From positions 1,728,001 through 1,792,000 of the forward strand of contig OZ219926.1 in NCBI GenBank assembly GCA_964291405.2: a DNA stretch of 64,000 nt. Reading direction: 5' to 3'. This document shows, one piece after another, positions 21,385 to 38,674 of the stretch. The stretch is from Thermodesulfobacteriota bacterium. GTDB lineage: Bacteria; Desulfobacterota; Binatia; Bin18. A program made the translations under genes and the position numbers. Positions within the stretch are counted from its first letter, which is position 1. The number at the start of each line of letters is the position of its first letter. The notes under the pieces were generated by a model that was not told the origin of the DNA, ran no database searches, and was given only the letters and a program-made list of their open reading frames with translations.

Positions 21385-22045
21385 AGGTCTTCCTTCTGAT
21401 AGCAGTGCTGGACGATCCGATGGCTGTCCCGGGCGTACAGGACAACGTCCAGGGGAAAATCAACGTTCACCGCGCTGATCCGGGTCGAATCAAAGGCCAG
21501 ACAGCCGACCTTGAGGGCAAACCGCATCGGGTCCTGATAGTGCAGTGTACGATCAAGAATCGGCTTCCCATAACCCGCGGCGCCAATAATGTGATACGGC
21601 GTGCCCTGGCCGATTTCGACCCAGTTGCCTTGGGGGTAGACGAGGTAGAGACGGTGCTCGGGGTCATTCTCAAGCTGCCCGCCAATGCGTTGCCGGCAAT
21701 CACCCGCGTATCGGCAATCCCAACCAGCAGGTTAAACTCAAAGCCGCTCTCCTCCAACGCGGCTTTATCTTCCTTTGCAACCCGACGCACCTGAGCGGCA
21801 AAGGCATTGACGGCCTTGAATAAGCGGTCGAGCGGCTGCTCGCTGTGGGCCAGATTTTCTTCAAAATAAATCAGGGCCTTGTCCCGTGCCGAGCGCAGCC
21901 GAGCACTCATGAGGAACATGGCATGCCGGTCTTTCTGGAACACCGACACTTTTCGGGCGGTAATACGTTCGTTGCCGGCAATCACCCGCGTATCGGCAAT
22001 CCCAACCAGCCCGCCTTGTAGATTCATCCCTAAACAAAACGTCAT
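21231..22045 (-). pseudogene. Anbu / proteasome-type Ntn peptidase, frameshifted
   Basis: N-terminus MTFCLG...GIADTR (Thr-1 type). The continuation IGGQLENDPEHRLYLVYPQGNWVE...YGKPILDR...AFDSTR is in another frame after a 41-bp insertion. Confidence 0.85.
21688..22010. repeat. Exact 41-bp direct repeat (21688-21728 and 21970-22010)
   Basis: CGTTGCCGGCAATCACCCGCGTATCGGCAATCCCAACCAGC occurs twice, 282 bp apart. Confidence 0.95.
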
Positions 22046-22072
22046 GCTCTGCCTCCTGTCCCCGAGCGAGGT

Positions 22073-23032: not shown

Positions 23033-23103
23033 GGTCCTGCGGTTCGCTTTCTCTCCATGACTGCGTCCATCCCTTTTGTGTCAGTTGGTCGGCCTCTCGG
23101 AGT

Positions 23104-24558
23104 CTATGGAGTGGGCGGTGCAACAGCAGGGACCACCCAGGTGTCTTTGCTACCCCCGCCTTGAGAAGAATTGACGACGAGTGAGCCTGCCCGCAAGGCC
23201 ACCCGCGTCAGCCCGCCGGGCAACACATAGATATCCTTGCCGTATAAAATAAACGGACGCAGGTCGAGATGCCGACCGACAAACCGCCCCTCGGCTAAAA
23301 TCGGGGCACGGGACAGGGCCAGCGTGGGCTGGGCAATATAATTGCGCGGGTCTTCCTGGATGAGCCGCGCGAATTGCGTCCGGGCTTCTTCCGAGGCGTG
23401 CGGGCCGACCAGCATGCCGTACCCACCGGACTCATTGGCCGCCTTGACGACCAGACTGTCCAGATGCGCCAAGACATATTGGAGGTCTTTCTCATCCCAG
23501 CACAAATAGGTCGGGACGTTGGGAATGATATTGTCCTCGCCCAAATAGTATTTGATCATTTTGGGAACATAAGCATAGACGACTTTGTCATCGGCCACCC
23601 CGGTTCCAGGCGCATTGACCACGGCGATACGTCCGGCTTTGTACACCTCGAAGAGGCCGGGTACGCCGAGCAGGGAATCGGGGTAAAACACCTGGGGATC
23701 AAGAAAGTCGTCATCAATGCGCCGATACAGAACATCGACCCGCTCCAGCCCCTTGGTCGTCCGCATCTGGACCGTCCCGTCAACAACCACCAGGTCCCGT
23801 CCCTCGACCAGTTCCACACCCATCTGCTGGGCCAGAAAGGAGTGTTCATAGTAGGCCGAGTTATAGATACCGGGGGTCAGCACCGCCACGTTGGGCGACT
23901 GAATATAATCGGGGCAGAGCTGCAAGAGGAGGTCGAGCAGACGGTTCGGATAGTCATCGACCGGAAGAACGTGTGACGCCTCAAAGACCGAGGGAAACGT
24001 CCGCTTCATAATCTCGCGGTTCGCCAGCACGTAGGAGACGCCGGACGGACAGCGCAAATTATCTTCGAGCACGTAGACCTGTCCGTCTCCGTCACGGACC
24101 AGATCAGTCCCGGTGATATGACACCAGACCCCGTTCGGCGGGTTGAGTCCGACGCAGGCCGGGCGAAAGCTGTTGGCCGACTGAATAATCTCGCGCGGAA
24201 TGACCCCGTCCTTGACGATCTTTTGGTCATGATACACATCGTCGAGGAACAGGTTGAGCGCCTGGATGCGTTGCTTGAGGCCACGTTCGATCCATTCCCA
24301 CTCGGACGCCTGCATCATGCGCGGCAGCACGTCAAACGGCCAGACTTTTTCCGCCGCCGCCTTATCGCCATAGACATTAAAGGTGATGCCCATATGGAGC
24401 AGGGCGCGTTCAGCAGCCTGTTGGCGGCGGTTCATCTCTCCGTCCGGCAGCGAGCTGATCAACCGCGCCAGGAGTGCCGCTTCCGGCCGAGGAATCCCGT
24501 CAGGCAGAAACATTTCATCGTAAAATCCACCGGTGTCGTAATTATCGAAACCTGCCAT
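23104..24558 (-). CDS. Circularly permuted type-2 ATP-grasp protein (DUF404-like)
   Basis: [41 protein letters not shown] and [13 protein letters not shown]; start ATG 24558. Confidence 0.94.
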
Positions 24559-24623
24559 GCTCTCGCACCCCGAAAAGTATACGCTCCTCTCCCTCAGTCT
24601 GGAGGAGCCCCACCCAGATAGAG

Positions 24624-24640
24624 AGCACACGCTATGCCAA
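24624..24640 (-). promoter_or_regulatory. sigma54 promoter of the ATP-grasp/alpha-E/Anbu operon
   Basis: Minus strand TTGGCATAGCGTGTGCT, GG-N10-GC. Confidence 0.8.
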
Positions 24641-24742
24641 GCCGCTCGCCGCTGACGAAAAACGATGTGACGCGCCGACAGATACACTGAGCGACGGAAG
24701 CCTTTGAGGAAATTTCCTTTTATAACAAAGGAGTTAGAGACG

Positions 24743-24817
24743 AGGGGGCAGGGATTGGGGGTTGGGGAGGGTAGACCTCCCCAGGCACCAATTCCCAAAT
24801 CCCGACCCTTAACCCTC
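24743..24817. repeat. Degenerate heptamer repeats (G-rich then C-rich) around a hairpin
   Basis: CAGGGAT TGGGGGT TGGGGAG G-GTAGA-CCTCCCCA GGCACCA ATTCCCA AATCCCG ACCCTTA. Confidence 0.5.
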
Positions 24818-24834: not shown

Positions 24835-25084
24835 GTAGCCAAAAGGGTAGACCTTCCCTTACACCAAACTTCAGCCCATCCTTTCTCCGGCTTCGTAGGG
24901 GTAATCGTCCGGTGTCCGTGCCCGAAAGCGTGTTGTTCAGCCAACATTCTGCTGCTGTAGAAACACTCCTGTACCGTTTTATTTCCTCACGTCTCGTCCC
25001 TCTTCATCCTCCTGTAGCCCGCCAACGCCTGTCCCGGCCTGCCTTTTTTCCTTTTTTCTTGGGTCTTGTTTGATTCCTGTGGGT

Positions 25085-25101
25085 TTGGCCTCGGTCTTGC
25101 T
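25085..25101 (+). promoter_or_regulatory. sigma54 promoter of the nirB-nas operon
   Basis: TTGGCCTCGGTCTTGCT, GG-N10-GC. Confidence 0.8.
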
Positions 25102-25155
25102 CATCTTCATCCCATCAGGCCGTCACTCGTCAGCGGCCGCGAGGAGGACGCATAC

Positions 25156-27684
25156 ATGGCCGGTACGCAAAAAGAGCGGCTTGTGGTGATTGGCAACGGC
25201 ATGGCGGGCGCGCGCGTTGTTGAGGAAATCCTGGCTCGCGACCCTGACCGCTTTGCCATTACCATGTTCGGTGCCGAGCCCTACGGCAACTACAACCGCA
25301 TCCTGCTGTCCAACGTGCTGAACGGCTCGCAGCGTATGGAGGAGACCTTTCTCAATCCCTTAGCCTGGTATGCAGAGCATAACATCCAGCTCCATGCTGG
25401 CGTTAAAGCGACCCTGATCGACCGTGAGCGGCGTGTCGTCACCGGCCGGCCTATGCGAACAGACGCCCCGGCCTATGGGCTCGACGGCTGTGCGCAAGCC
25501 GTGCCGTATATTGAAGAGCCCTACGACAAGGTCATTATCGCCACGGGCTCCCGCCCGTTTGTGCCGCCCATGGAGGGAATGGGGAAGCGGGGTACGTTTC
25601 TCTTTCGGACTATTGATGACTGCGAGCAGATTGCCGCGTATGCCAAGCAGTGTCAGCACGCTGCGGTCATCGGCGGGGGCTTGCTTGGGCTTGAGGCAGC
25701 GCGTGGCCTGCTGACTCACGGGGTCGAGGTCACCGTACTCGAAGCCGCACCGCAGCCCATGAGTGCGCAGCTCGACCCGGAATCCGGCGATCTGCTGAGC
25801 ACGACGTTGCGCCAGATGGACATCAGCGTCCTGCTCGGAAAAATCACCACGCATATTCTCGGTGAAGAACACGTCACCGGGCTGCGGTTCACAGATGGGT
25901 CTGCGCTTGAGACTGACATGGTCGTGGTCAGCGCCGGCATTCGGCCTATTGTCGAAATTGCGACCGACTCCGGCTTGGCAGTTGAGCGCGGAATCGTGTG
26001 TGACGACCAACTGCGGACGAGCGACCCTGGCGTGTTTGCCGTGGGCGAGTGCGTCCAACACCGCGGCGTCATCTATGGGCTAGTTGATCCGATCTGGGAT
26101 CAGGCCCGGACCTTGGCCGATGTCATCACCGAGACGAATCCGGCGTCTCGGTATGAAGGCTCCAAGCTGGCGACCAAACTCAAAGTCATGGGCGTCGAAC
26201 TCGCCTCCATGGGCGAGACCAAAGAAGCCGAGCCCGACGATGAAGTCGTGATCTACCGGGAGCCCTCGCGCGGAGTGTATAAAAAACTGATTATTCGCGA
26301 CAACCGACTGCACGGTGCGATTCTCCTCGGCGAAGCCGACACCGCCAGCACGCTGATGCAGATGTTCAGCCTGGACACCGCACTGCCGGAACGCCGGGCC
26401 GATCTCCTCTTTGGTCCGGCGAATGGCGCCTCGCTGCTGGCTGCGGCCGATTTGCCGGACGAGGCCCAGATTTGCAACTGTAATGGCGTATCCAAAGGCT
26501 GTATCCGCGCCGCGATTGAAACCGAGGGCTGTACGTCCGTCATGCAGGTCGGGGCCAAGACCAAAGCCGGGGCGGGCTGCGGAAGCTGTCAATCCTTGGT
26601 CGCCCAGCTTCTGGAGGCGTATGCGGGCGAGATCCTCGAGGATCCGAGCGAACATTATTATGTCCCCGGTGTCCCGCTACCGAAACCGGAACTCATCGCC
26701 GCCATCAGAAAAAAACAACTGAAAAGCGTCAGCGCGGTCTTTCGAGAACTGGCGGATGGCAAAGAAGACCCAGGCAGCAAGATCGGTCTGGCTTCTCTGC
26801 TCAAGTCCCTCTGGCCGAACGAATACGAGGACGAACGCGACGCACGGTTTATCAATGACCGCGTCCACGCCAATATTCAGCACGACGGCACCTTCAGCGT
26901 GGTTCCCCGTATTTATGGGGGCGTCACCTCCCCGGCCGAACTGAAGCGCATTGCCGAGGTCGCGGAACAGTACAACGCCCGCATGGTCAAAATTACGGGC
27001 GGTCAACGCATCGACTTGTTAGGCATCACAAAAGAAAACCTGCCCAAGGTGTGGCAGGCGCTCGGCATTCCCAGCGGCCATGCCTATACCAAAGCGTTTC
27101 GGACCTGTAAGAGCTGCGTGGGCACAGACTTCTGCCGCTATGGCTTGGGCGACTCGATTGCCCTAGCGCAAAAGATTGAGCGACGCTACCAGGGCGTTGA
27201 ATCCCCCCATAAAATGAAGCTGGCAACCGCCGGTTGTCCGCGCAACTGCTCCGAGGCCTACGTCAAAGATCTGGGCGCGGTGGCCATCGGGGACGGCAAG
27301 TGGGAAATCTATATCGGCGGGGCGGCCGGCGGGACGGTCCGCAAGGGCGATCTGCTGTGTACAGTCGAAGGACATAAGCAGGTCCTCATCTATATGGGCC
27401 GCTTCATCCAGTATTACCGAGAAAATGCCAAATACCTGGAACGTACCTATGGGTTCGCCGAACGCGTTGGTATTGAGCATCTGCGCGCGGTCTTAATCGA
27501 CGATACGGAAGGGATCTGCGAGCGCTTGGACGCAGAGATCGACAAGGCAGTTGCAGCCTATCGGGACCCCTGGTCGACGGAGGCCGTCCAGCCCAGGAAC
27601 GTCAGCCAGTTTGCCGGTCCTCTACCGGTTGAGACCTCGTCTGGGACCTGGAGAGAGACGCCGCGAGAGGAAACCGTCCAATGA
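25156..27684 (+). CDS. nirB: NAD(P)H-dependent nitrite reductase large subunit
   Basis: VVIGNGMAG, YNRILLS, GGGLLGLEAA, CNCNGVSK..CGSC, NDRVHANIQ.DGTFSVVPR, CVGTDFC and GCPRNC; GAGGAGG RBS. Confidence 0.96.
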   Translation: MAGTQKERLVVIGNGMAGARVVEEILARDPDRFAITMFGAEPYGNYNRILLSNVLNGSQRMEETFLNPLAWYAEHNIQLHAGVKATLIDRERRVVTGRPMRTDAPAYGLDGCAQAVPYIEEPYDKVIIATGSRPFVPPMEGMGKRGTFLFRTIDDCEQIAAYAKQCQHAAVIGGGLLGLEAARGLLTHGVEVTVLEAAPQPMSAQLDPESGDLLSTTLRQMDISVLLGKITTHILGEEHVTGLRFTDGSALETDMVVVSAGIRPIVEIATDSGLAVERGIVCDDQLRTSDPGVFAVGECVQHRGVIYGLVDPIWDQARTLADVITETNPASRYEGSKLATKLKVMGVELASMGETKEAEPDDEVVIYREPSRGVYKKLIIRDNRLHGAILLGEADTASTLMQMFSLDTALPERRADLLFGPANGASLLAAADLPDEAQICNCNGVSKGCIRAAIETEGCTSVMQVGAKTKAGAGCGSCQSLVAQLLEAYAGEILEDPSEHYYVPGVPLPKPELIAAIRKKQLKSVSAVFRELADGKEDPGSKIGLASLLKSLWPNEYEDERDARFINDRVHANIQHDGTFSVVPRIYGGVTSPAELKRIAEVAEQYNARMVKITGGQRIDLLGITKENLPKVWQALGIPSGHAYTKAFRTCKSCVGTDFCRYGLGDSIALAQKIERRYQGVESPHKMKLATAGCPRNCSEAYVKDLGAVAIGDGKWEIYIGGAAGGTVRKGDLLCTVEGHKQVLIYMGRFIQYYRENAKYLERTYGFAERVGIEHLRAVLIDDTEGICERLDAEIDKAVAAYRDPWSTEAVQPRNVSQFAGPLPVETSSGTWRETPREETVQ

Positions 27685-28109
27685 GCTACAGTCCCGTCAC
27701 GGAAACACCACCGAAACCCAGTCATCCTCGAAACAACTGGTCCCCAACCGACCCAATAGACTCAACTGACCCCATGGACTCCATAGACCCAACCGACTCG
27801 ATGGACCAAATCGACCTCGGCCCGGTTGACTTTATTCCGCTCGGTGAGGGGCGCGCCTATACCTTTGGCGGGAAAACAATAGCTGTGTTCCGTCAGCGGG
27901 ACGGACGTCTTTTCGCCACTGATAATGCATGTCCGCACAAGGCCGGCCCACTGGCCGACGGGCTGGTCGGTTCCGGGAAAGTGATCTGTCCGCTGCATAT
28001 GTGGAAGATCGACCTGGAGACGGGTCGGTGCCTGGGCGAGGATGGTGCTGTCCGGACCTATCCGGTACGCACGGCAAACGGACGGATTCGCATTACGCTG
28101 ACCCCATAG
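27681..28109 (+). CDS. nirD: Nitrite reductase small subunit / Rieske ferredoxin
   Basis: NACPHKAGPLADG..VICPLH; overlaps the nirB stop. N-terminus is repetitive and the true start may be 27801. Confidence 0.88.
   Translation: MSYSPVTETPPKPSHPRNNWSPTDPIDSTDPMDSIDPTDSMDQIDLGPVDFIPLGEGRAYTFGGKTIAVFRQRDGRLFATDNACPHKAGPLADGLVGSGKVICPLHMWKIDLETGRCLGEDGAVRTYPVRTANGRIRITLTP
27747..27818. repeat. Eight degenerate 9-bp tandem units (AYNGACYMN-like)
   Basis: ACCGACCCA ATAGACTCA ACTGACCCC ATGGACTCC ATAGACCCA ACCGACTCG ATGGACCAA ATCGACCTC. Confidence 0.85.
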
Positions 28110-28120
28110 AACGGACCCCG

Positions 28121-29353
28121 ATGCAACACACAGCCCCCTACCCCCTATCCCCGAGCCCTCATTCCCCCCTCCAAAGGCACGCTTCCGGCCCGAGGGCGCG
28201 GACGGCACTGACCGTGGGAGTTCGGGAGCGACTCACTCGGCGACTTTTTTCTCGGCCAACTCGGAAACGCCCGACGATAGACCCCACAGCAAGTATTATT
28301 GCCACCCTGACCGGGGCCGGGGTTGCCGGTCTGATTATCCTTGGCTCAGACACCCTACGCCATTTCGATTGGGTGCTGCTGCCCTATACCATGGCGTCGA
28401 TTTTTTGTGCCGCCGCAGTGGCCTATCGCTACACCGTCTGGCTGCAACGCCCACCAACCAAACGCTATTGGTATCAAGGCTGGCGGCTCTTTTGGCAGGG
28501 CGGGGTGCTGCGCAACTCGGTCATGTTGGGCCAGCAGCTCTTTGACAATTTTGCGACCCAGCGCTTCATCGCCAACCGGAGTCGGGTGCGCTGGCTCATG
28601 CACGTCTGTCTCTCCTGGGGCGGGACGCTGGCCTTTGCGATTACGTTTCCGCTCGTCTTCGGCTGGCTGCATTTTGAGACACCGGCGGACGATCTCCACA
28701 CCTATCAGGTCATTTTTTTGGGAGTGAAAGTCCAGGAGTTTTCGGTGGACTCCATAGCCGCTTTTCTGTCTTTTAACGCACTGAATATCTCTGCCGTGCT
28801 GGTGTTGATCGGGGTAGGTCTGGCCATCCAACGTCGGCTGACTGAACCGGGGACCATCTCACTCCAGCAGTTCGGCAATGACGTGCTACCTATTCTGCTG
28901 CTGTTCCTGGTTGCGGTCACCGGGCTGGGTCTGACGGTCAGCGCACGCTGGCTTAATGGACACGGTTTCACGTTTATTGCGATTACCCACGCCGCATCGG
29001 TCATTGCCATGCTGCTGTACCTGCCCTTTGGGAAATTTTTCCACATCTTCCAGCGTCCGGCCCAGCTCGGGGTGGCGTTCTATAAACGCGCCGCCCAGGT
29101 CGACCGACAGGCCCTCTGTCATGTGTGCCAAGAGCCGTACGCCTCTCAGATGCAGATTGATGACCTGAAAGACGTGCTGAGCGAGCTGGATTTCCAGTAT
29201 CAATTTGACCCCTCGCTCCACTATCAAGACGTCTGTCCCCCCTGTCGGCGCCGTCTGCTGGCCCGGAATCAGGGCCTGACGAGGCCGTACTCGGATGACC
29301 CGTTTGCCGACACGGAAGAACCGACACCCCCAGGTGCATCGAGCGTTGCCTAG
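28121..29353 (+). CDS. Polytopic membrane protein, NarI/DsrM-like (putative cytochrome b) with C-terminal CxxC..CxxC
   Basis: Several TM helices; [10 protein letters not shown] and [19 protein letters not shown] (PF.K..H motif of NarI-type anchors); CHVC..CPPC. Start uncertain. Confidence 0.65.
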
Positions 29354-29363
29354 AAAGGGTTTT

Positions 29364-31541
29364 ATGGCGATCCCCCCGTTATCCGAGCAGGAACTGATTC
29401 AGCAATATGGGCCGCATCTCAATTATGAACCGCCCGGTGGTTGGCTGGCGGAGCATGAGCCCGACCGGCTCGTCAAAACGCACTGCTGTTTCTGCGGCGT
29501 CCAGTGTGGCATTCAGCTCAAAGTCCATAACGAAAAAGTGGTCGGCTTTGAGCCCTGGGAAGACTTTCCGGTCAATCAAGGCAGGCTGTGTCCCAAAGGG
29601 GTCAAGCGGTATCTCCAGAACAACCACCCGGATCGGCTGCTGCATCCCCTCATTCGGACGGACAACGGGTTTCGGGAGGCAGATTGGGACGACGCCTTGT
29701 CGCTGGTGGTCGAACACATCCAGCGTATTCAAGCCACATACGGCAAGGATGCGTTTGCGGTTTTGTCCGGGGCGTCGGTGACCAATGAAAAAGCCTATCT
29801 CATGGGTAAATTCGCCCGCGTCGCGCTCCAAACGGCCAACATCGATTACAACGGCCGTTTATGTATGGTCTCGGCCGGGGCGGCCAATAAGATGGCCTTC
29901 GGTATCGACCGGGTCGCCAATCCCTGGTCGGATATCCCGCTGACTCAGCTCGTCCTGGTCACCGGCAGTAATATCGGTGAGTGTTTTCCCATCCTGACCG
30001 ATTATCTGTGGCGCGCGCGGGATAATGGCGCCAAGTTTATTGCCATAGACCCGCGTATGACGCCGATGGCCCGCACTGCGGATTTGTTTCTGCCCGTGCG
30101 GCCTGGCCGTGACAGTGCGCTCATGAACGGCATCCTGCATGTGCTCATTGAGCAGGACTGGATTGATCACGATTTTATTGACGCCCATACCAAGGGTTTT
30201 GAATCCGTACAGAAAGCAGTGGCCGAGTACACCCCACAGATGACCGCCGGGATCAGCGGCGTTCCCGCAGCCAGTATAGTGCGTGCGGCGGAAATGTGGG
30301 CCGAAGCCGAGAAATCGATGCTGCTACACGCTCGCGGAATCGAGCATCACACCAAGGGGGTGGAGAACGTCCTGAGCTGTATTAACCTGGTCTTGGCAAC
30401 CGGCCGGATCGGGCAGCCGGGCTGCGGCTACGGGACGATTACCGGCCAGGGCAACGGCCAGGGCGGGCGTGAGCACGGACAGCGCTGCAATCAGTTGCCG
30501 GGCGGACGCGATATTGAGAACCCGCAGCACCGGGAAGAAATAGCCCGGACCTGGAAGGTCAACGAGTCTGACCTGCCCCATGTCGGCCTGACCGCGGTCG
30601 AGCTGATGGACGCCGTCAATGCCGGTCAGATCAAGGGCTTGCTGTCCTTATCCTTTAACCCGTTGGTCTCACTCCCGGATACGAAGTTGACGCGTGCTGC
30701 GCTTGAAAAGCTCGAGTTCTACGCCGCGATTGATCCGTTCATGTCAGAAACGGCCCGCTATGCGGATGTCGTGCTGGCCGGCTCCCTTCAGGAAGAAGAC
30801 GAAGGTACAGTCACAAACGGTGAAGGCCGTGTGGTGCGCATTCGTCAGGCGGTCCCACCGCCTGGGAATGCACGAGTCGATTGGGAGATTATTGTCGATA
30901 TCGCCCATCGACTCGGCAAAGAGCTGCTCTTTCCGTATGCCGAACCCGAAGACCTGTTCCGTGAATTGTGCCGGGCCTCAGCCGGCGGGCCGGTTGATTA
31001 CGCCGGCCTGAACTATGCCAAAATCGAACAGCATAACGGCGTCTTCTGGCCGTGTCCGAGCCGGGAACATCCGGGCACACCGCGCCTGTTTGAAGGCGGC
31101 GCGTTCGCCCACCCTGACGGCAAGGCCCAATTTCATCCGGTGACCTACCGCCCACCGGACGAGGATGTTGACGCGACCTATCCCATTATTATGACCAGCG
31201 GCCGGGTGGTCTCGCAGTATTTGAGCGGTACCCAGACCCGTCGGATCGGTCCCTTGGTCGATCAATATCCGGGCCCACAGATCGAGCTGCATCCCAGGCT
31301 GGCCGAACAGTATGGCATTCAGAACGGAGAGATGGTGTGTGTCGAAAGTCGGCGTTCGTCCGTGACACTGCCAGCCCTGGTCGTGCGTACGATTCGACCT
31401 GACACGATCTTTATTCCCTATCACTGGCCGGGCGAGCAGGCCGCCAATCGGGTGACCAACCGTGCGCTTGATCCTATCTCCAAGATTCCCGAGTTCAAGG
31501 TCTGTGCCGTTCGGCTGCGCAAGGTGGAGACGAGTGTCTGA
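29364..31541 (+). CDS. Molybdopterin oxidoreductase, assimilatory nitrate reductase catalytic subunit (NasA/NasC-like)
   Basis: [12 protein letters not shown] 4Fe-4S motif; [10 protein letters not shown] (Cys-Met, not FDH C/U-His); [11 protein letters not shown]; no Tat signal; co-transcribed with nirBD. Confidence 0.85.
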
Positions 31542-31543
31542 GT

Positions 31544-32104
31544 ATGGAATTCTTTATTGACCCCTCCCGCTGTATCGGCTGTCAAGCCTGTGTTCATGCC
31601 TGCGCCGAGTGTGAGTCGCACCGGGGCGTGTCCATGATCCACCTGGATTATGTTGACCGTTCGAGCTCGCCGCAAACTACGCCCACGGTGTGTATGCACT
31701 GCGAAGACCCGACCTGCGCGCGCGTGTGTCCGGCGGATGCGATTAAGCAAACTGCAGAGGGCGTGGTCCAGTCGGCCTTACAGCCCCGCTGTATCGGCTG
31801 CTCGAACTGCGTCCTGGCCTGCCCATTTGGCGTCCCGCGCTATCTGGGTGAGATGGACCAAATGATGAAGTGCGACATGTGTTACGACCGCACCTCAGCA
31901 GACCTCAAGCCCATGTGCGCCACGGTATGTCCCAGCGGTGCGTTGTTCTTTGGCACTAAAGAAGAAATCGAGCAGAAACGCCAGGAAAAGCCCATCAACC
32001 GCTTTACCTTTGGTCGGCAAGTTGTGACCACAAAAGTTCATCTCATGGTGGGTGACACGGCGCCGGATGAAATGGAGTTTGATGTGGCGAGTTTCTGCGA
32101 ATGA
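31544..32104 (+). CDS. 4Fe-4S dicluster electron-transfer subunit (DmsB/NrfC-like)
   Basis: [39 protein letters not shown] and KCDMC..CATVCP. Confidence 0.92.
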
Positions 32105-32139
32105 GAGAAACCAGCCCAACGAGATGAGAGCGTAGAGCT

Positions 32140-32634
32140 ATGCCTGATAGCATTCCCCGGTGGCGTGAAGATTTTCCCATTAATTGGGAAGATGATCACT
32201 ATGTGACCCGGCGTTCCTTCACCACTTTTTTGACCTTTATTTCGAGCGCGCTCTTTCTCGGCACCGGACTGGTTGCGCTACGAGAATGGTGGCAGCGCTG
32301 GCGCCCCGCACAGTTTACGGCGCTGCGCATTGCCGCGGTATCGGATATCGCTATTGGACAGGCTAAACTCTTCTTTTATCCCACCAAAACCGACCCCTGT
32401 TTATTGATCCGGGTCGCCGCGAACCGCTTTGTCGCGTACAGCCAGAAGTGTACACATTTACTCTGTCCGGTCCTCTATCAAAAGGAGAAAAAACAGCTCC
32501 ACTGCCCCTGTCATGAGGGCTATTTCGCGCTGGAAGACGGTCGGCCGCTGGCAGGTCCGCCCAAACGTCCGCTGCCGCGCATCGTGCTTCAGGTCAAGGA
32601 CGACAGCGTGTGGGCGACGGGTATGCAAGTATAG
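32140..32634 (+). CDS. Membrane-anchored Rieske 2Fe-2S protein with twin-arginine motif
   Basis: TRRSF plus TM helix; CTHLLC and CPCHEG boxes; GPPKRPL. Confidence 0.88.
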   Translation: MPDSIPRWREDFPINWEDDHYVTRRSFTTFLTFISSALFLGTGLVALREWWQRWRPAQFTALRIAAVSDIAIGQAKLFFYPTKTDPCLLIRVAANRFVAYSQKCTHLLCPVLYQKEKKQLHCPCHEGYFALEDGRPLAGPPKRPLPRIVLQVKDDSVWATGMQV

Positions 32635-32642
32635 GGCGCGGT

Positions 32643-32861
32643 ATGAATCTGCCTTCCGCCACACTGCGCCAGCAGCGCAGCTCAGTGCTCGGGCTGGTCA
32701 CGGCTTTTGTCGTTGTCCTGTTACTCGTGCAGTTATGGCTGCTGGTCGAAGCAATTGAAGGCCATCTCGGCGGGGCGGGCAGCATTGTCGGTCCCGCGGC
32801 AATCGCCTCGGGAGCATGCTTTGCCGCGGCCGTCTGGTTGTGGCGCATGATGCAACGCTGA
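32643..32861 (+). CDS. Small two-TM membrane protein (DUF6755-like)
   Basis: LLLVQLWLL..A.E..LGG...PAAIAS pattern; 8 bp after the Rieske gene. Confidence 0.65.
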   Translation: MNLPSATLRQQRSSVLGLVTAFVVVLLLVQLWLLVEAIEGHLGGAGSIVGPAAIASGACFAAAVWLWRMMQR

Positions 32862-32880
32862 ACGAGAGAGGGATGGTCAA

Positions 32881-33123
32881 ATGAAAGAGCAGGCGTTCTA
32901 CCCCGATCACATTGTCGAGCAAATCAAATCGTTCTTTCACAATGTCCACGATATGACCGATTTCTACTATAAGCTCTATCTGCTGAACGGCTTGTGTCAG
33001 CAGTGCGATGGACGGGGCTATCTCCAGTCCCCGGACGAGGCCTGCCCGGCCTGTCAGGCTAGTGGCGATGCCGACATCTGGCATCGCGCACGTATTACCA
33101 AACCTGCCGAAAAAGCCCCCTGA
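32881..33123 (+). CDS. Small hypothetical protein with CxxCxGxG..CxxC zinc-finger motif
   Basis: CQQCDGRG..CPACQASG; GAGGG RBS; follows the operon closely. Confidence 0.6.
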   Translation: MKEQAFYPDHIVEQIKSFFHNVHDMTDFYYKLYLLNGLCQQCDGRGYLQSPDEACPACQASGDADIWHRARITKPAEKAP

Positions 33124-33138
33124 TACGCTCCCAGAACG

Positions 33139-33624
33139 CTATTTTTCTCTTCGCTTCTTTGCACGTGTGGAGCGTGGCGGGTCCAACAACCACACTTCCC
33201 CTGCTTTGGATATACGCGCAATAAAAGGCGGGGGATTTTCTGTAACGAACCGCTGTATTTTCGGGAGGGCATTGGCAATAGCTGAAGCCATGTCTTCACC
33301 GGACATATTGCCCGAGGGTAGGATAAAAACGCGAGCCCCGCTCTGCATGAGCGCTTCACGCTCAGCCGGACGTTTGCGTATACGATCGTCCTTGGTCAGG
33401 ATCAGCCAGCCGCGCCGCCCCACCGCAGGCAACCATTCTTCATCCAGGACATCGATCTCAAAGTGCTCTTTGAGCAGTTCGACTCTACATCCTTGCTGAC
33501 GGAGTGCTTGCGCAATGACCTTGTCTCCCAAGCTTTGGTCGAGGAAGAAGGTGGAACCTTCAGGCCGCGTCCCGGTAGTGCTCGCAGCGGATCGCTTCTT
33601 CGATTTCTGCTTGCGTGCGGCCAT
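33139..33624 (-). CDS. PIN-like toxin (VapC45/PIN_10-like)
   Basis: FFLDQSLG..DEEWL..GWLILTKDDRIR. Confidence 0.85.
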   Translation of the reverse strand: MAARKQKSKKRSAASTTGTRPEGSTFFLDQSLGDKVIAQALRQQGCRVELLKEHFEIDVLDEEWLPAVGRRGWLILTKDDRIRKRPAEREALMQSGARVFILPSGNMSGEDMASAIANALPKIQRFVTENPPPFIARISKAGEVWLLDPPRSTRAKKRREK

Positions 33625-34279
33625 AGTCATCCGCAAGTCGGGCAACCGACTCCCCGGCTTCGAATCGTTGGTAGACGACTTCGGTTGAGATGCGGGTGCC
33701 GACTACCACCGGCCGTCCAAACGCAATGCGCGGGTCAACAACGATGACACGGGGCGCGGTCTCAGAGGTGTCTCGTCGGGTGAATAGATACAGCTTGATC
33801 GCCAGCCCGGATACGTCCCGTTCGATCCGACGCAGGTGGGCTTTCAGCATATTACGCATACTGAGTTGCCCTTCATCTGAGATGGTAATCAGGTTTCCAA
33901 ACTGTTCGACGAAGAGGTCTAATCCATCCGTCTCAAAGCGTTGATCAGCCAGTGGATGCGGAGAGGGAAAGTGCCGATTGATATAGCGTAGCGCGCTTCT
34001 GACTTTAGGGAACGAGACGCGATGATGACGACGAATAGCGGCGAGGACATGCGCCTCAATGAGATTCACGAAGGACAACAGGAAGCGCTCCGTATCGGCA
34101 AGAGCCATAATCGGTTTGAAGCGTCGAGGCCCTTGCTGGGTTGGATAGTGCCGCCCACAAACCCACGTCCGGAGGGTAGCGACTGGAATCCGCAGATAGT
34201 GAGCCGCCTCCGGGATACCATACGCTGGCAACTCGCGTGGGTCTCGCCCTCTGTATATATTTTTTTCTGTCCGGCCCAT
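33560..34279 (-). CDS. DUF433 HTH antitoxin (VapB45-like)
   Basis: PAYGIPEAAHYL, LSFVNLIE and DPRIAFGRPVVVGTRI..GES...LADDY. Confidence 0.88.
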   Translation of the reverse strand: MGRTEKNIYRGRDPRELPAYGIPEAAHYLRIPVATLRTWVCGRHYPTQQGPRRFKPIMALADTERFLLSFVNLIEAHVLAAIRRHHRVSFPKVRSALRYINRHFPSPHPLADQRFETDGLDLFVEQFGNLITISDEGQLSMRNMLKAHLRRIERDVSGLAIKLYLFTRRDTSETAPRVIVVDPRIAFGRPVVVGTRISTEVVYQRFEAGESVARLADDYGRTQAEIEEAIRCEHYRDAA

Positions 34280-34451
34280 GAACGCGGCTCTCCTTGCCAT
34301 GCCGCTCAGCATGTAACGACAAGCATCAACTCTTTACATTCCTCAAATCAGATCAAATCACAAGCCCGACGGCTTTAGGATGCACCTTACCGCCGTGGCA
34401 GCCTGGCTGTGGCGCACGGTCCGCCGTTAGACCGATGTTCGACAGAATCAT

Positions 34452-35486
34452 TCATCCTTCCAGCGTCGGCCACCCGTTTCTGGCGATATACTTATTTAGG
34501 CTCTCCGGCCGGTAATTAGAATCTTGCTCCCAGCGTTCTTTCACCGACTTGTGAATCAACACTTTTCCCTTCCTATGGTTTATTGGACGCCATATGTCCT
34601 TCCAGGAACGAAACTTGAGGCTCGAAGAATCGTGCAGCGTGGCGGCGGGGTCCGGTTTCAGTCTCCGACCAAGATGCTTCTCGAACGACAGGTCGGCTTG
34701 CTCAGCCTCACCCACCATCCAGCCCAGCGCGATGTCCGACAGTAGCGCACCGCCCTTATCCGGTTTGTAGCCCCCGCCTACATCAGAATGGACTCCAACG
34801 AACCATACCTGCTTCAAATCCAGGTTTCTTCGGGGTTGTAGAACGGTTGCTTCAAAGTCGTAGCGTCGCTCGTCAATAGCGAGAGCGTGGCGGGCAATGC
34901 GCACATTTGGGCCCATTTCTGAATCATAAAACTCATCCTCGGCGTTTAACCAACCGAGCCAAGAAAACGGAATCCCAAGCGCCCCCACCGTATCGAACAC
35001 GCCCAGGAACCGGACCTCTTTGGACGGGTGGGCATGCCTCTTACGAAACGCGATAGACTTTGTGCCCTCTGGCGCATACTCGTCTTCTTGACGCTTGTAG
35101 TGGTCGAAGGCCGTTTGTATCAGACGCGCGTCCGGGCGTTTCAGGATACCGCAGTTGTTAATAAGCCCACATAGGCTCCGCACCGTGTATGCTCCACGAC
35201 TGAAACCGAACAGAAACAAATCGTCACCCGGCGAGTAGTTCTGAACGATGTAACGGTAGCCGTCCATAATGTTCTTATGTATGCCGCTGCCCGCTGTCCC
35301 GGCGCCCCATTCATCATGGTAGGAACCTAATCCCCAGTCGTAAAATACTTGTTGTGGTGTATTGTCATCGGCAACCGGGCTGACAGCGCGAGCAAGTCGA
35401 ATCACATTGGCTGGAACGTCTTCTTTCAAATTTTTCTCGGGACGGTTCCAGGTGCCGTCCGCGCAGACTACAATACGCTTTTTCAT
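34452..35486 (-). CDS. DUF2235 alpha/beta hydrolase (Tle1-like phospholipase domain)
   Basis: CADGTWN, GFSRGAYTVR, FDTVGALG, HALAIDERR and WFVGVHSDVGGGY. Confidence 0.92.
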   Translation of the reverse strand: MKKRIVVCADGTWNRPEKNLKEDVPANVIRLARAVSPVADDNTPQQVFYDWGLGSYHDEWGAGTAGSGIHKNIMDGYRYIVQNYSPGDDLFLFGFSRGAYTVRSLCGLINNCGILKRPDARLIQTAFDHYKRQEDEYAPEGTKSIAFRKRHAHPSKEVRFLGVFDTVGALGIPFSWLGWLNAEDEFYDSEMGPNVRIARHALAIDERRYDFEATVLQPRRNLDLKQVWFVGVHSDVGGGYKPDKGGALLSDIALGWMVGEAEQADLSFEKHLGRRLKPDPAATLHDSSSLKFRSWKDIWRPINHRKGKVLIHKSVKERWEQDSNYRPESLNKYIARNGWPTLEG

Positions 35487-35750
35487 ATCTCCCCTCTCAT
35501 AGCGAAACGGGGATTTCCGCTGCTTCACGTCTTGAACAGCAGGATATCTGATTTGGGTCTGTGTGTCTCGCTAGTGTTGGTCTGGAGTTCGTCCAGAACC
35601 AAGGCGTGTTGCTGAGTCAGCATATTGCATGCTGAACAACAGGCCTGTTTTGGCCGACTGACGGTACGCCTCAGCCTCTGCAACCCGGACTCGGGTGTAT
35701 CGACGTAAAAATACGGCCTTTTCTACTTTTTCCCCAGGCACCCCTACATT

Positions 35751-35767
35751 CTGGCCTGTGAATTGCT
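35751..35767 (+). promoter_or_regulatory. sigma54 promoter of narK-nirA
   Basis: CTGGCCTGTGAATTGCT, GG-N10-GC. Confidence 0.8.
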
Positions 35768-35817
35768 GTGTCCTCAAGTGTCACGAATATCGCGAGCAGA
35801 AGGAGGCTGGCGTCGAT

Positions 35818-37179
35818 ATGGAAGTCAAAAACAAGGCGACGAAAATTGACCTGTTCAGTCTGGCAACCCCGCAGATGCGGACCTTTCACATGACGTGGTT
35901 CGCTTTTTTTCTGTGTTTCTTTGGCTGGTTTGGTATTGCGCCGCTAATGGTGCTGGTCCGTGAGGATCTGATGCTGACCAAGGCGCAGATCGGGAATACC
36001 ATTATCGCCTCGGTCGCTATTACCGTTATCGTCCGTATTATTATTGGTCCGCTGTGCGACCGCTTCGGCTCTCGCCTGGTCTATACTTGGTTGCTGTTGC
36101 TCGGATCACTACCGGTGATGGGGATTGGCCTAGCCCAGAGCTATGAGAGCTTTCTACTTTTTCGACTGGCGCTTGGCGCAATCGGCGCGTCGTTTGTCAT
36201 TACGCAGTACCATACCTCGATGATGTTCGGCCCCAATTGTGTCGGGACGGCCAACGCTACCACTGCCGGCTGGGGGAACCTGGGTGGAGGGATCACCCAA
36301 ATGGTCATGCCCCTCATCCTGGGAGCCATCCTCTTTTTTGGTGTCAGTGAGTCGCTCGGCTGGCGGCTGGCGATGATCGTACCGGGTGCGGTCCTGTTTC
36401 TGACCGGTATCGGCTATTATTTCTGTACCCAGGATGCGCCGGACGGCAATTATCAGGAACTGCGTGCGCGCGGTGAGTTGCCTCCCGCGGAAGGCAGTTC
36501 CAAAGCATCGTTCTTGTTAGCGGCCAAAGACTATCGTGTATGGGCTTTGTTTGTCATATATGCGGCCTGTTTTGGCGTTGAGCTGACCATCAATAATATT
36601 GCCGCTCTGTATTTCTATGACTTCTTCAAGCTCGATTTGGCAACAGCAGGCATTATCGCCGGTCTGTTCGGTCTAATGAATATTTTTGCCCGGACCCTGG
36701 GCGGCATATTCTCGGATATCTGCGCGGTTAAGATAGGGCTCAGAGGCCGGGTCTGGTTTATGGGAGCCGTCCTCTTGGCCGAAGGTATTGCCTTGGTCGT
36801 CTTCTCGCAGATGAGCGTTTTACCGCTGGCGATCATGAGCATGATTGTCTTCAGCCTATTTGTCCAAATGTCCGAAGGCGCGACCTATGCGGTCGTTCCT
36901 TTTATCAACAAAAAAGCACTCGGTGGCGTGGCCGGCATTGTGGGTGCAGGCGGGAACGCCGGAGCGGTTGCCGCCGGATTTCTGTTTCGCTCGGAGAGTC
37001 TCAGTACCCAGCAAGGCCTGTTGATTCTGGGCATTGTGGTTGCCCTGGCGTCTGCCTGTATGTTTTTGGTGACCTTTCCGCAAGCAGTCCACGAGGAAGA
37101 ACAGCGCAATCTGGAAAAGGCTCTGGCCGAGAAAGCAGCACCAGCCGGGGAAGAACTCACTCCGGCAATCGCCAGCTAA
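35818..37179 (+). CDS. narK: Nitrate/nitrite MFS transporter (NNP/NRT2 family)
   Basis: FHMTWFAFF, nitrate signature GTANATTAGWGNLGGG, FGLMNIFARTLGG and GIVGAGGNAG. Confidence 0.93.
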   Translation: MEVKNKATKIDLFSLATPQMRTFHMTWFAFFLCFFGWFGIAPLMVLVREDLMLTKAQIGNTIIASVAITVIVRIIIGPLCDRFGSRLVYTWLLLLGSLPVMGIGLAQSYESFLLFRLALGAIGASFVITQYHTSMMFGPNCVGTANATTAGWGNLGGGITQMVMPLILGAILFFGVSESLGWRLAMIVPGAVLFLTGIGYYFCTQDAPDGNYQELRARGELPPAEGSSKASFLLAAKDYRVWALFVIYAACFGVELTINNIAALYFYDFFKLDLATAGIIAGLFGLMNIFARTLGGIFSDICAVKIGLRGRVWFMGAVLLAEGIALVVFSQMSVLPLAIMSMIVFSLFVQMSEGATYAVVPFINKKALGGVAGIVGAGGNAGAVAAGFLFRSESLSTQQGLLILGIVVALASACMFLVTFPQAVHEEEQRNLEKALAEKAAPAGEELTPAIAS

Positions 37180-37216
37180 TTCGGGTGAGGCCGGTTCGTA
37201 GACAACGGTGAAGCGC

Positions 37217-38674
37217 ATGACAACAGCAGCGGAGGAGGCTGGCAGCAGCCTCTCTCACGCCATTCAGAACGGCTGGAAATCCCTGTCCGAGCATGAAATC
37301 GAAGGGCTCAAAGGCGCCGGCGTCTTCTTTCAGCGTCAGACGCCGGGCAATTTTATGATGCGGCTGCGGATGAGCAACGGGCTCAGTAATGCAGCCCAGT
37401 TTCGCACTCTGGCGGCGCTAAGTGAAGAATTCGGGAAGGGCTTTGTTGATATTACGACCCGGCAGCAAATCCAACTGCGATGGTTTCATATCGAGCATGT
37501 CCCGGAGATGTGGCAGCGGCTCGAACAGGTCGGCTTGGTCTCGCTGCAGACCGGCCTGAACAACATCCGTGGAGTAACGGGCTGCCCGGCAGCCGGTCTG
37601 ACTCCCAACGAGCTATTTGACGCCTCGCCCGTCACTCGACACTATACCGAGGCATTCTTACGCAACCCGGAATACACAAACCTGCCGCGCAAGTTTAAGG
37701 TCACCATCTCCGCATGTCTGGACAATTGTACCTCTCCGGACTCACAAGACGTGGGCTTGGTTCCGGCAATCAAAGAGAGCGCTGGGGTTGAGGTCTGCGG
37801 CTTCAACGTCTTTGTTGGTGGAAAGCAGGGCTCGGGCGGCTATACGCCAGCACAAGCGCTTGATGTCTTCATCCCGCCACACGACGCCGTTTCCCTGTGT
37901 GGCACAATTGCCCTCCTCTTTCGTGACCACGGCCAACGCCAGGATCGCAAAAAATCACGCCTCTTTTTCCTCATCCAAGACTGGGGTATCGAGAAATTTC
38001 GGCGCGAACTGGAGCGCTGTCTTGGTCATTCCCTCCAGTCGGCGGGTCAGGATGTGCGGAGTACTGTCCGCACCGATCATGTCGGCCTCTTTCGCCAACG
38101 GCAAACCGGCTTCAACTACGTCGGGCTCGTCGTCCCAACCGGCCGGCTGTCAGCAACGCAACTGCTCGGTGTTGCCACGCTGGCGGAACACTACGGCAGC
38201 GGAGAGATTCGTCTAACCCCAAGTCAGAATCTGATTATCCCGCATATTCCAGACCACATGGTCGGCGACCTGACCCAGGAACCGGTGCTTCAAGAACTCC
38301 GCTATGATCCTTCGGCATTCATACGTGGCCTCGTCAGTTGTACCGGCCGCGATTACTGTCACTATTCGCTGATTGAAACAAAACAGTATGCGCTCGACAC
38401 GGCTCGTCACCTCGAAAAGACCGTAGGTAAGACCACCCCCCTCACCATGCGCTGGTCGGGCTGTCAGAACGGCTGCGGGAACCATACCACCGCGGATATC
38501 GGCTTTTTGGGAAAGAAAGTGCAGCGGGATGGGAAAACCATTGAGGCGGTAGATGTGTTTGTCGGTGGGCGCTCAGGTCCGGATACGCGGTCCGGTACGA
38601 AGCTCTTAGCCGATGTCCCATGCAAAGAGCTGCCTCAGGTGCTGGAGAAGCTCATTCCCTATATGAACCGCTGA
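37217..38674 (+). CDS. nirA: Ferredoxin-dependent nitrite reductase (NirA/Sir family)
   Basis: FMMRLR, ITTRQQIQLR, NLPRKFK, and siroheme/4Fe-4S cysteines CTGRDYC..SGCQNGC; follows narK. Confidence 0.85.
   Translation: MTTAAEEAGSSLSHAIQNGWKSLSEHEIEGLKGAGVFFQRQTPGNFMMRLRMSNGLSNAAQFRTLAALSEEFGKGFVDITTRQQIQLRWFHIEHVPEMWQRLEQVGLVSLQTGLNNIRGVTGCPAAGLTPNELFDASPVTRHYTEAFLRNPEYTNLPRKFKVTISACLDNCTSPDSQDVGLVPAIKESAGVEVCGFNVFVGGKQGSGGYTPAQALDVFIPPHDAVSLCGTIALLFRDHGQRQDRKKSRLFFLIQDWGIEKFRRELERCLGHSLQSAGQDVRSTVRTDHVGLFRQRQTGFNYVGLVVPTGRLSATQLLGVATLAEHYGSGEIRLTPSQNLIIPHIPDHMVGDLTQEPVLQELRYDPSAFIRGLVSCTGRDYCHYSLIETKQYALDTARHLEKTVGKTTPLTMRWSGCQNGCGNHTTADIGFLGKKVQRDGKTIEAVDVFVGGRSGPDTRSGTKLLADVPCKELPQVLEKLIPYMNR

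Follow-up and report, generated by a model that had tools for sequence, protein, structure and literature searches.

The haloarchaeal nitrate reductase (Nar) combines NarG/NarH-type subunits, with a twin-arginine translocation (Tat) signal on NarG, with a Rieske protein (NarB) and a bc1-type cytochrome b (NarC), and the NarCGHI enzyme of Thermus joins NarG/NarH-type subunits to a periplasmic cytochrome c. Rieske-type partners also occur on the assimilatory side: the NasC of Paracoccus has one (NasG), and a 729-residue NasC of Bacillus bataviensis is linked to genes for an iron-sulfur and a Rieske protein, a linkage that is common to other Bacillus and was termed an alternative assimilatory system (Heylen and Keltjens, 2012; PMC3475470). 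The sections of that article that deal with the Bacillus genes mention no membrane cytochrome, small membrane protein, Tat signal or biochemistry (PMC3475470). The present analysis concerns a gene module in a 64,000-nucleotide stretch of contig OZ219926.1 (the window) from a Thermodesulfobacteriota bacterium of the GTDB lineage Binatia, where five tightly packed genes at window positions 28121-32861 of the plus strand encode a NarI-like membrane subunit, a molybdenum (Mo) subunit, an iron-sulfur (FeS) protein with four [4Fe-4S] clusters, a Rieske protein and a DUF6755 protein. A preliminary description, made from the sequence alone, had called this complex poorly characterised; no characterisation beyond the 2012 remark was found in the literature searched, most subscription journals lying outside the search.

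The module is rated a membrane-bound nitrate reductase of new composition. The reading favoured here, held with a confidence somewhat above even, is that the five genes encode a membrane-bound, quinol-fed nitrate reductase with its active site in the cytoplasm, and that the enzyme is assimilatory in this genome. The first gene (28121..29353) encodes the NarI-like membrane subunit of 410 residues (PF02665, 17.4 bits against a cut-off of 22.9). It is followed by the gene for the catalytic subunit (29364..31541), a molybdenum-bis(pyranopterin guanine dinucleotide) protein of 725 residues that resembles NasC and FdhF (PF00384, PF01568, PF04879), and by that for the four-cluster [4Fe-4S] electron-transfer subunit (31544..32104), which has 186 residues and is of the DmsB/FdnH/HycB kind (PF13247, 71.5 bits, cut-off 26.2). 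The last two encode the Rieske [2Fe-2S] protein of 164 residues (32140..32634; PF00355, 41.7 bits, cut-off 20.3) and the two-helix DUF6755 membrane protein of 72 residues (32643..32861; PF20540, 57 bits, cut-off 27). The genes and motifs of the preliminary description (RLCM, TGQ.N..GGRE, TRRSF, CTHLLC, CPCHEG and PF.K..H) were all recovered through open reading frames (ORFs), Pfam and NCBIfam; the span that it gave, 28121..33123, holds the five genes and takes in at its end an ORF of 80 residues (32881..33123, plus strand) that it had left unmentioned.

A scan of one genome per species returned at least 600 stretches, at least 511 of which encode a relative of the membrane subunit; the best 80 were kept as loci, and gene presence in them was scored by tblastn with the window proteins. 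The four large genes occur together in 70 of the 80, in the order membrane-Mo-FeS-Rieske in 62 loci and FeS-Rieske-membrane-Mo in 8, and nine of the 80 end at a contig edge inside or just past the Mo or FeS gene. In 68 of the 70 loci an ORF of 73-118 residues begins at the Rieske stop codon or next to it; it has a QxWLL motif and mostly two hydrophobic segments (range one to three), and its Edaphobacter copy matches DUF6755 at 67.3 bits. This genome has one copy of the DUF6755 gene and the 14 control genomes have none; no literature on DUF6755 was found among the sources searched. The preliminary description had taken the five genes for parts of one complex, and the survey of gene neighbourhoods found them kept together. 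They form a conserved unit, and since this unit recurs across phyla its conservation goes beyond chance. The labels of the loci place them in Acidobacteriota, Armatimonadota, Chloroflexota, Verrucomicrobiota, Planctomycetota, Myxococcota and Binatia, at least seven phyla; one comes from a cultured carrier, Edaphobacter aggregans DSM 19364 (L067), and the nearest relatives of the membrane protein among the matches listed, at 89-95% identity, belong to metagenome-assembled genomes (MAGs) labelled Candidatus Binatia. A Phycisphaeraceae MAG holds the sole full-length locus of the 80 with just the membrane and Mo genes (L077, 8001-11522), no FeS or Rieske gene being detectable within 8 kb upstream or 5.6 kb downstream. 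In a Tepidisphaeraceae MAG (L048) small genes are inserted at 9189-9608 and 11928-12332, a cupin gene separating the membrane gene from the Mo gene and one for a '23S rRNA intervening sequence protein' separating the Mo gene from the FeS gene, with NnrS-DUF1858, Rrf2 and MoaA nearby.

The Mo subunit has an N-terminal [4Fe-4S] motif and a Cys ligand to molybdenum (RLCM). Its top NCBIfam family is NasC (NF047855, 819 bits against a cut-off of 1100), followed by the formate dehydrogenase family Fdh-alpha (TIGR01591, 624.6 bits, under the cut-off of 666.25). NasC is the top family in all 34 module Mo subunits tested, that of the window included; for the other 33, drawn from 70 available, the scores run from 752 to 854 bits, all short of 1100. 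As they align end to end and score under the cut-off, the module Mo subunits appear to be a sister subfamily of NasC and not NasC proper. The NapA models TIGR01706 and NF010055 give 268 and 283 bits (cut-offs 930 and 904), and the NarG model TIGR01580 gives 50 bits (cut-off 1084). The nearest solved relatives are cytoplasmic formate dehydrogenases, namely FdhF of the hydrogen-dependent carbon dioxide reductase (HDCR; 3e-150) and E. coli FdhF (1.1e-102), with D. desulfuricans NapA tying with the latter (1.1e-102). Formate dehydrogenases need a His after the Mo ligand and a catalytic Arg. When the window subunit and four module homologues were aligned with E. coli FdhF and with NapA, the module sequence NGRLCM stood against ARHCM in NapA and ARV-Sec-H in FdhF, and ITGQ against LTGQ and VRGQ, with Thr at the FdhF Arg position as in NapA; Met and Thr replace the FdhF His and Arg in all five module subunits. 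The Cys-Met pair and the Thr, both of the NapA kind, are nitrate reductase residues and not those of formate dehydrogenases, in line with the NasA-like type given in the preliminary description. Assignments of the subunit as formate dehydrogenase, NapA, NarG or AioA were rejected, the family scores lying under the cut-offs and the formate dehydrogenase residues being replaced. The window Mo subunit has no twin-arginine signal from either of its candidate starts, and no convincing signal of this kind was found in 80 Mo and 71 FeS homologues, where the twin-arginine-like matches (five Mo, two FeS) lie upstream of the start codon or come without a hydrophobic stretch.

The membrane subunit carries a PFGKFFH motif, and its NCBIfam matches are TcuB (E 3.4e-7) and QmoC (E 1.7e-6), through the NarI-like C-terminal parts of these families. 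An AlphaFold2 (AF2) model built from 51 sequences has a mean predicted local distance difference test score (pLDDT) of 83.6 and a predicted template modelling score (pTM) of 0.74. Searched with Foldseek against the PDB, the model finds no match at E <= 0.001; NarI chains come up at E 0.014-0.11 with a probability of 0.97-1.0. VIA-align, run over 48,161 chains, places M. smegmatis EtfD at the top (9ojn, Z 11.7, root-mean-square deviation (rmsd) 4.2, 233 residues aligned), E. coli NarI second (1q16_C, Z 10.4, rmsd 5.7, 187/224 aligned) and the dihaem superoxide oxidase CybB third (Z 8.5), all Z values under about 13 being possibly generic for helical bundles. An hhalign comparison of the family profile with E. 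coli NarI covers 100 columns (E 8.9e-4, probability 23%) and sets H290 on NarI H187, H308 on H205 and PFGKFFHIF against PFSRLIHIW. The profile of the membrane protein did not retrieve NarI from the PDB sequences, the HycF C-terminus (E 0.78) being its only match.

The haem-ligating histidines of NarI we take to be H56, H66, H187 and H205. Across 81 sequences of the membrane subunit, only H161, H290 and H308 are invariant. Helix 3 has H161 at its cytoplasmic end; position 171, ten residues further along the same helix and the expected equivalent of NarI His66, is Ala in 79 sequences and Gly in 2, and H184 is His in 59 of the 81. On these residues the inner (proximal) haem site looks intact. As a check on the haem-ligating histidine geometry named in the preliminary description the outcome is mixed: H290 and H308, which match the NarI pair, and H161 are invariant, the fourth position is Ala or Gly, and the comparisons gave no residue-level match of helix 3 to NarI helix II. 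Hydropathy and the distribution of Lys and Arg predict six helices with both termini inside (11, 10, 2 and 11 Lys+Arg in the inner segments, 1, 1 and 1 in the outer loops), and about 150 conserved residues of the subunit face the cytoplasm against about 45 outside. In 12 of the 80 loci the membrane protein has an MFS transporter joined in frame to its N-terminus, and in 26 more an MFS gene lies just upstream. Among database proteins of 719-2050 residues, 1588 match the membrane subunit at E <= 0.001; the 120 listed are all of 737-780 residues and all carry PF07690, as MFS fusions, with no fusion of membrane protein and Mo subunit among them. These natural N-terminal fusions support the topology with both termini inside. 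They also account for database names: thousands of metagenome proteins are related to the membrane subunit, the labels given to it are "MFS transporter" or "hypothetical", and unfused copies bear the transporter name because of their MFS-fused relatives.

At its C-terminus the membrane subunit has a domain with four Cys residues (C333, C336, C372 and C375, invariant or nearly so), here called the Cys4 domain, which AF2 models with a pLDDT above 90. Three weak but concordant tests liken it to the C-terminus of HycF: NCBIfam (E 0.0018 and 0.0036 over residues 321-381), the profile search of PDB sequences (E 0.78, domain E 0.31) and VIA-align (Z 6.4, rmsd 1.9 over 52 residues, 25% identity). In formate hydrogenlyase (FHL), HycF's extension at the C-terminus is described as holding a Cys quartet with one metal ion, tentatively iron, and, in the same account, as touching HycB and sitting at the FdhF interface (PMC9474812). 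Given this likeness, and the kinship of the module FeS and Mo subunits with HycB/FdnH and FdhF, the cytoplasmic Cys4 domain may dock these two subunits; such docking is a lead, short of proof.

The FeS protein holds four Cys motifs with 16 Cys between them, which do not vary in sets of 45 and of 70 sequences, and it has neither a membrane helix nor a signal peptide. Its nearest PDB relatives are FdnH (9.7e-29), then HDCR HycB3, PsrB and HycB, and it scores 37.2 bits against the NarH model TIGR01660 (cut-off 524). The Rieske protein has one hydrophobic helix (residues 29-47) and the motifs TRRSF, CTHLLC and CPCHEG. In all 70 homologues shown, a twin-arginine sequence, (T/S/N)RRxFxKFLxLxS, stands before the single helix and is preceded by a conserved WRxDFP peptide. 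Invariant in 46 sequences are W8, R24, R25, C104, H106, C109, C122, C124 and H125, so that the CxH...CxxH ligands and the two disulfide cysteines of the respiratory type (PF00355) are kept. The Tat-type Rieske protein with membrane helix and extra cysteines that had been described earlier was thus recovered, with motif, helix and disulfide cysteines all conserved, and its cluster domain is very probably outside the membrane, as predicted from these features. Its nearest NCBIfam families are actinobacterial QcrA and AioB, both below their cut-offs (AioB model TIGR02694, 47.8 bits against 95.65), and its nearest solved relatives AioB (5.7e-13), the Rieske protein of the Thermus bc complex and actinobacterial QcrA. 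The Ser and Tyr of CPCHGSxY raise the potential of bc1 Rieske clusters. The module protein has CPCHEGYF, with G127 and F129 (invariant in 46 sequences) at the bc1 Ser and Tyr positions, and this replacement suggests a middle rather than a top Rieske potential. Longer, fused Rieske forms were absent from the 409 candidates at E <= 0.001, which is weak evidence. When the membrane protein (residues 50-392) was co-folded with the FeS and Rieske proteins, the Rieske protein as scored partner reached 0.56 against 0.01 for the best control; this is weak support, in that of 157 solved complexes 116 pass the mark, as do 2 of 215 mismatches, and scores of 0.60 or less were given by only 18 of the 157 solved complexes plus both passing mismatches. 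The runs share at least 79% of contacts, and the pLDDT of the Rieske partner is at least 74. As to the 80-residue ORF, a lineage-specific Cys-rich protein with CxxCxGxG...CxxC motifs, its DnaJ zinc-finger likeness is weak (E 0.0018, below cut-off), and it is possibly an assembly factor.

In the mechanism that we propose, the NarI-like protein would bind haem b, oxidise membrane quinol at the outer face and move electrons across the membrane. Its conserved cytoplasmic surface, including the Cys4 metal site, would dock the four-cluster FeS protein, and electrons would run from the Cys4 site through the four FeS clusters to the NasC-like Mo subunit, which would reduce nitrate in the cytoplasm after import by the linked NarK-type transporter. 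The Rieske protein would be inserted via Tat so as to have its cluster domain outside and its conserved N-terminal peptide inside, the helix lying next to the cytochrome; together with DUF6755 it would probably make up or serve the quinol site at the outer face, or else a side branch that leads to carriers in the periplasm. Nitrite would go to NirBD and NirA in this Binatia genome, and assimilation would proceed via a Nar-like redox loop.

The genomic setting of the module is that of nitrate assimilation, the module being co-oriented with nirBD, narK and nirA. The series is opened by nirB (25156..27684, plus strand), for the large subunit of NAD(P)H nitrite reductase (TIGR02374, 816.8 bits, cut-off 578, and Pfam domains), and nirD (27681..28109, plus strand), for the Rieske-type small subunit (TIGR02378, 81.7 bits, cut-off 74.65), overlaps its stop by 4 nucleotides. 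Both lie directly upstream of the five-gene set, and the whole series is joined by gaps of at most 35 nucleotides or by overlaps. Downstream on the same strand are a narK-type nitrate/nitrite MFS transporter gene (35695..37179; TIGR00886, 312.7 bits, cut-off 311.7) and a nirA-like gene for a ferredoxin-type sirohaem nitrite reductase (37208..38674; NF007125, 481.4 bits, cut-off 594; PF01077 and PF03460 twice each). In three Binatia relatives (L002, L005 and L006), narK and nirA come directly after the 80-residue ORF, in one uninterrupted series. A sigma-54-type -24/-12 motif, TGGC-N7-TTGC, lies at 25086..25100 on the plus strand, 56 nucleotides before the nirB ATG, and 7 of 7 Binatia relatives have it in the matching position, with differing spacers; a second, at 35752-35766, is likewise kept in 7 of 7 with a varying spacer. 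Because this second motif lies where it does, narK probably starts at the ATG at 35818 and not at the GTG at 35695. The number of such motifs in the window is at chance level (5 found, 3.45 expected), so only their position and conservation are informative, and among 72 loci from other phyla just 2 have the same simple motif upstream of the unit. The genome, which is 97.5% complete in 3 contigs, has the module Mo gene as its only NasC-like gene, the next match being a 952-residue open frame at 529 bits, and nothing in it passes the cut-offs for NarG (best 40 bits), NrfA or NirK. Gene context, the kept sigma-54-type motifs, the sole NasC-like gene and the lack of NarG, NrfA and NirK make nitrogen-regulated assimilation likely here. 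The preliminary description had proposed a sigma-54 series with nirBD and, for it, a quinol-linked complex in nitrogen-regulated assimilation. The series is borne out by the contiguous genes and by the motif kept before nirB in all seven relatives, and assimilation fits this genome; but the module family is not assimilatory as such (see below), the quinol link is put forward here as a proposal, and reduction of nitrate on the cytoplasmic side of the membrane as the more probable of two arrangements.

Some further features of the window may be noted. Residues 1-45 of NirD (window 27681-27815) form an acidic Asp/Pro/Ser-rich repeat extension, TDPIDSTDPMDSIDPTDSMDQID, ahead of the Rieske-like domain, and no gene of the series is less conserved in the Binatia relatives than nirD (71-90% identity). 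Three minus-strand genes at 33139-35528 separate the nitrate reductase series from narK and nirA; they encode a PIN_10 protein, an overlapping DUF433/HTH_66 protein (the two being toxin-antitoxin-like) and a protein resembling Tle1 of type VI secretion systems (DUF2235). The G+C content falls to 0.54-0.56 within this segment, which looks like an insertion because narK directly follows the series in L002, L005 and L006. Upstream of the nirB promoter region, at 21467-24798 on the minus strand, ORFs of 564, 319 and 192 residues diverge from the nitrate cluster. At least half of the sampled words of window 25000-33200 occur in four public sponge metagenome runs (X5, X10, X11 and X12), and about one third in coral metagenome runs; no RNA run was among the public runs listed as matching this region.

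In other phyla the module keeps different company. By tblastn, the 80-residue ORF, nirB and nirD are confined to seven Binatia loci of the 80, and nirA to these seven plus L025, where it is on the opposite strand; neither nirA nor nirB was found in 72 of the 80 loci, and Pfam likewise showed neither in 11 loci from other phyla. What these loci do have is a transporter: in 10 of the 11 scanned, an MFS, SLAC1 or HPP transporter adjoins the unit or is fused to it. It is an MFS protein in L008, L010, L065 and L067, an in-frame fusion in L019 and L062, SLAC1 in L072 and L079 and HPP in L059, with an apparent fusion in L011 (contig match only) and no transporter seen in L048. Anion transporters are thus interchangeable beside the unit, and tblastn with the window NarK undercounts them, having missed the MFS gene that Pfam found in L008. 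NnrS, Rrf2, DUF1858, hemerythrin, MoaA or a sigma-54 activator accompany the unit in some of the loci. Among five further carrier genomes (completeness not stated), NirB is over the cut-off in one and NirK in none, NrfA is present in one, and NirA-like matches, all under the cut-off, occur in four. The one with NrfA is the Phycisphaerales genome of L079, in which both sirohaem nitrite reductases are missing. Since 72 of the 80 loci show neither nirA nor nirB and this carrier genome has NrfA without a sirohaem enzyme, the module family is not assimilatory as such; it looks like a general nitrate reductase, assimilatory here and probably dissimilatory elsewhere.

Several observations weigh against the quinol-fed enzyme with a cytoplasmic active site. 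The sequence link of the membrane subunit to NarI is weak, with Pfam below the cut-off, an hhalign probability of 23%, no Foldseek match at the threshold and low Z values, and the HycF likeness of the Cys4 domain is also weak (E 0.3-0.8 against PDB sequences). With only three invariant histidines, Ala or Gly at position 171 and His at position 184 in 59 of 81 sequences, the outer haem site would be non-canonical or absent. The co-fold result came without contacts, so that it does not settle the face at which the Rieske or FeS protein would bind. The outward Rieske cluster has no obvious donor or acceptor encoded in the operon, and the nearest solved relatives of the Rieske protein are AioB proteins. 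In arsenite oxidase, the Tat signal of AioB exports the signal-less Mo subunit, and an all-periplasmic module could work in the same manner, the Mo and FeS subunits folding inside and leaving on the Rieske Tat signal. Quinol oxidised at a Rieske/cytochrome b site would then pass electrons to the Rieske, FeS and Mo proteins in turn, with nitrate reduced outside and nitrite imported by the transporters; a comparable electron path, by way of a Rieske protein and a cytochrome b, has been suggested for the Nar of haloarchaea. The twin-arginine motif, invariant in the 70 homologues shown, the disulfide cysteines kept in 46 sequences and the AioB kinship all agree with this arrangement, as does the lack of signals on the Mo and FeS proteins, which is what hitchhikers would show; it gives the Rieske protein a simple place in the main electron path, and the adjoining HPP, SLAC1 and MFS transporters could import nitrite. 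Although the main rival of the favoured reading, it is judged rather unlikely. The most conserved soluble parts of the membrane protein, including the HycF-like Cys4 site, face the cytoplasm, the families nearest to the Mo subunit (NasC and FdhF) are cytoplasmic, and the conserved unit includes no gene for an export chaperone. Moreover, the L079 genome, with periplasmic NrfA and no sirohaem enzyme, keeps an operonic anion channel that a periplasmic nitrate reductase would not need.

Other alternatives concern what the complex does. It may be built as proposed and yet serve mainly energy conservation or redox balance in this genome, with NirBD as electron sink or detoxifier. A NarI-type redox loop would conserve energy, nitrosative-stress genes (NnrS, Rrf2, DUF1858, hemerythrin) adjoin the module in other phyla while nirA and nirB do not, and one carrier genome has NrfA; but here nirBD, narK and nirA flank the module, in one uninterrupted series in three close relatives, sigma-54-type motifs are kept before nirB and narK, and the module is the only candidate nitrate reductase of an otherwise complete assimilation set, all of which makes this role improbable. 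Still harder to credit, and given very little weight, is that the Mo subunit is a formate dehydrogenase or another oxidoreductase that sends electrons outward through the cytochrome to the Rieske protein. Its nearest structures are indeed HDCR FdhF (3e-150) and E. coli FdhF (at 1.1e-102 equal to NapA), and its Fdh-alpha score lies just under the cut-off (624.6 against 666.25 bits). The Met and Thr shared with NapA by all five aligned subunits, the top rank of NasC in 34 of 34, the steady linkage or fusion to NarK-type transporters and the nitrate-assimilation cluster around the module here argue against it. A more speculative reading, which must be counted a long shot, takes the module for a Rieske/cytochrome b complex of a third kind, with a NarI scaffold in the place of a bc1/b6f cytochrome b, in which quinol-based electron bifurcation drives nitrate assimilation and ties it to respiration. 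Menaquinol at a Qo-like outer site would give one electron to the exported Rieske protein and on to periplasmic high-potential carriers, and the other, strongly reducing electron would pass by haem b and the Cys4/FeS chain to a low-potential NasC-type Mo centre.

The module pairs the catalytic subunit of one class with the membrane logic of another, and adds a Rieske protein. Genomes and metagenomes are scored for Nar, Nap or Nas, and the label is taken to mean respiratory or assimilatory. As the module is spread over hundreds of bacterial species, many of them from soil lineages, many genomes may reduce nitrate through an enzyme type so far uncharacterised. If the complex takes its electrons from quinol and conserves energy, estimates of which organisms reduce nitrate, and of the energetic cost and the regulation of the process, would have to be revised, and the Rieske subunit would be a new case for the building of quinol oxidation sites. 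Cultured carriers make the module testable: Edaphobacter aggregans DSM 19364 and, going by the published account of its genes, probably Bacillus bataviensis (PMC3475470).

Set beside known systems, the module resembles in plan E. coli NarGHI with NarK (1Q16), each having a four-cluster FeS protein, a Mo-bis(pyranopterin guanine dinucleotide) subunit, a linked NarK-type transporter and a membrane subunit, which in the module is a putative cytochrome b of NarI-like fold; its PF..(K/R)..H motif and the histidines at the two C-terminal haem-ligand positions line up with NarI. Unlike NarGHI, it has a NasC/FdhF-like Mo subunit of 725 residues with a Cys ligand, an FeS protein of 186 residues that is not NarH, a membrane subunit with six predicted helices, a Cys4 domain and three conserved histidines, and a Rieske and a DUF6755 protein in addition, and it lacks NarJ. 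With the soluble NasC, NarB and NasA enzymes, the Paracoccus NasC with NasG and NasB among them, it shares the best family of its Mo subunit (NasC) and, here, the company of nirBD, narK and nirA; in place of their diaphorase or ferredoxin partner, however, it has a membrane cytochrome and a four-cluster protein, and its Rieske protein is of the AioB/bc type with a Tat anchor and disulfide cysteines, unlike soluble ferredoxins of the NirD kind. The likeness to the Bacillus bataviensis genes is one of description only, there being no Bacillales among the 80 loci kept.

Arsenite oxidase (AioAB) is similar in that AioB is the nearest solved kin of the Rieske protein (5.7e-13) and in that the only Tat-type signal is on the Rieske protein, beside a signal-less Mo subunit. 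The module proteins nevertheless score below the AioB (47.8 against 95.65 bits) and AioA (146 against 359 bits) models, and Aio, which oxidises its substrate, has no four-cluster subunit, cytochrome b or transporter. The FdhF-HycB-HycF arm of FHL (7Z0S/7Z0T) and HDCR (7QV7) offer a Mo subunit, a four-cluster ferredoxin and a Cys-quartet site; in the module, by contrast, the active-site residues are of the nitrate reductase type, the Cys4 site is on a NarI-like cytochrome instead of a NuoI-like ferredoxin, and there is no hydrogenase or complex-I-like arm. Haloarchaeal and Thermus Nar, finally, are nitrate reductases with a Rieske/cytochrome b pair or with a NarI-type anchor and redox subunits on both faces of the membrane, and in this the module resembles them; it differs in its catalytic part, theirs being made of NarG/NarH-type subunits.

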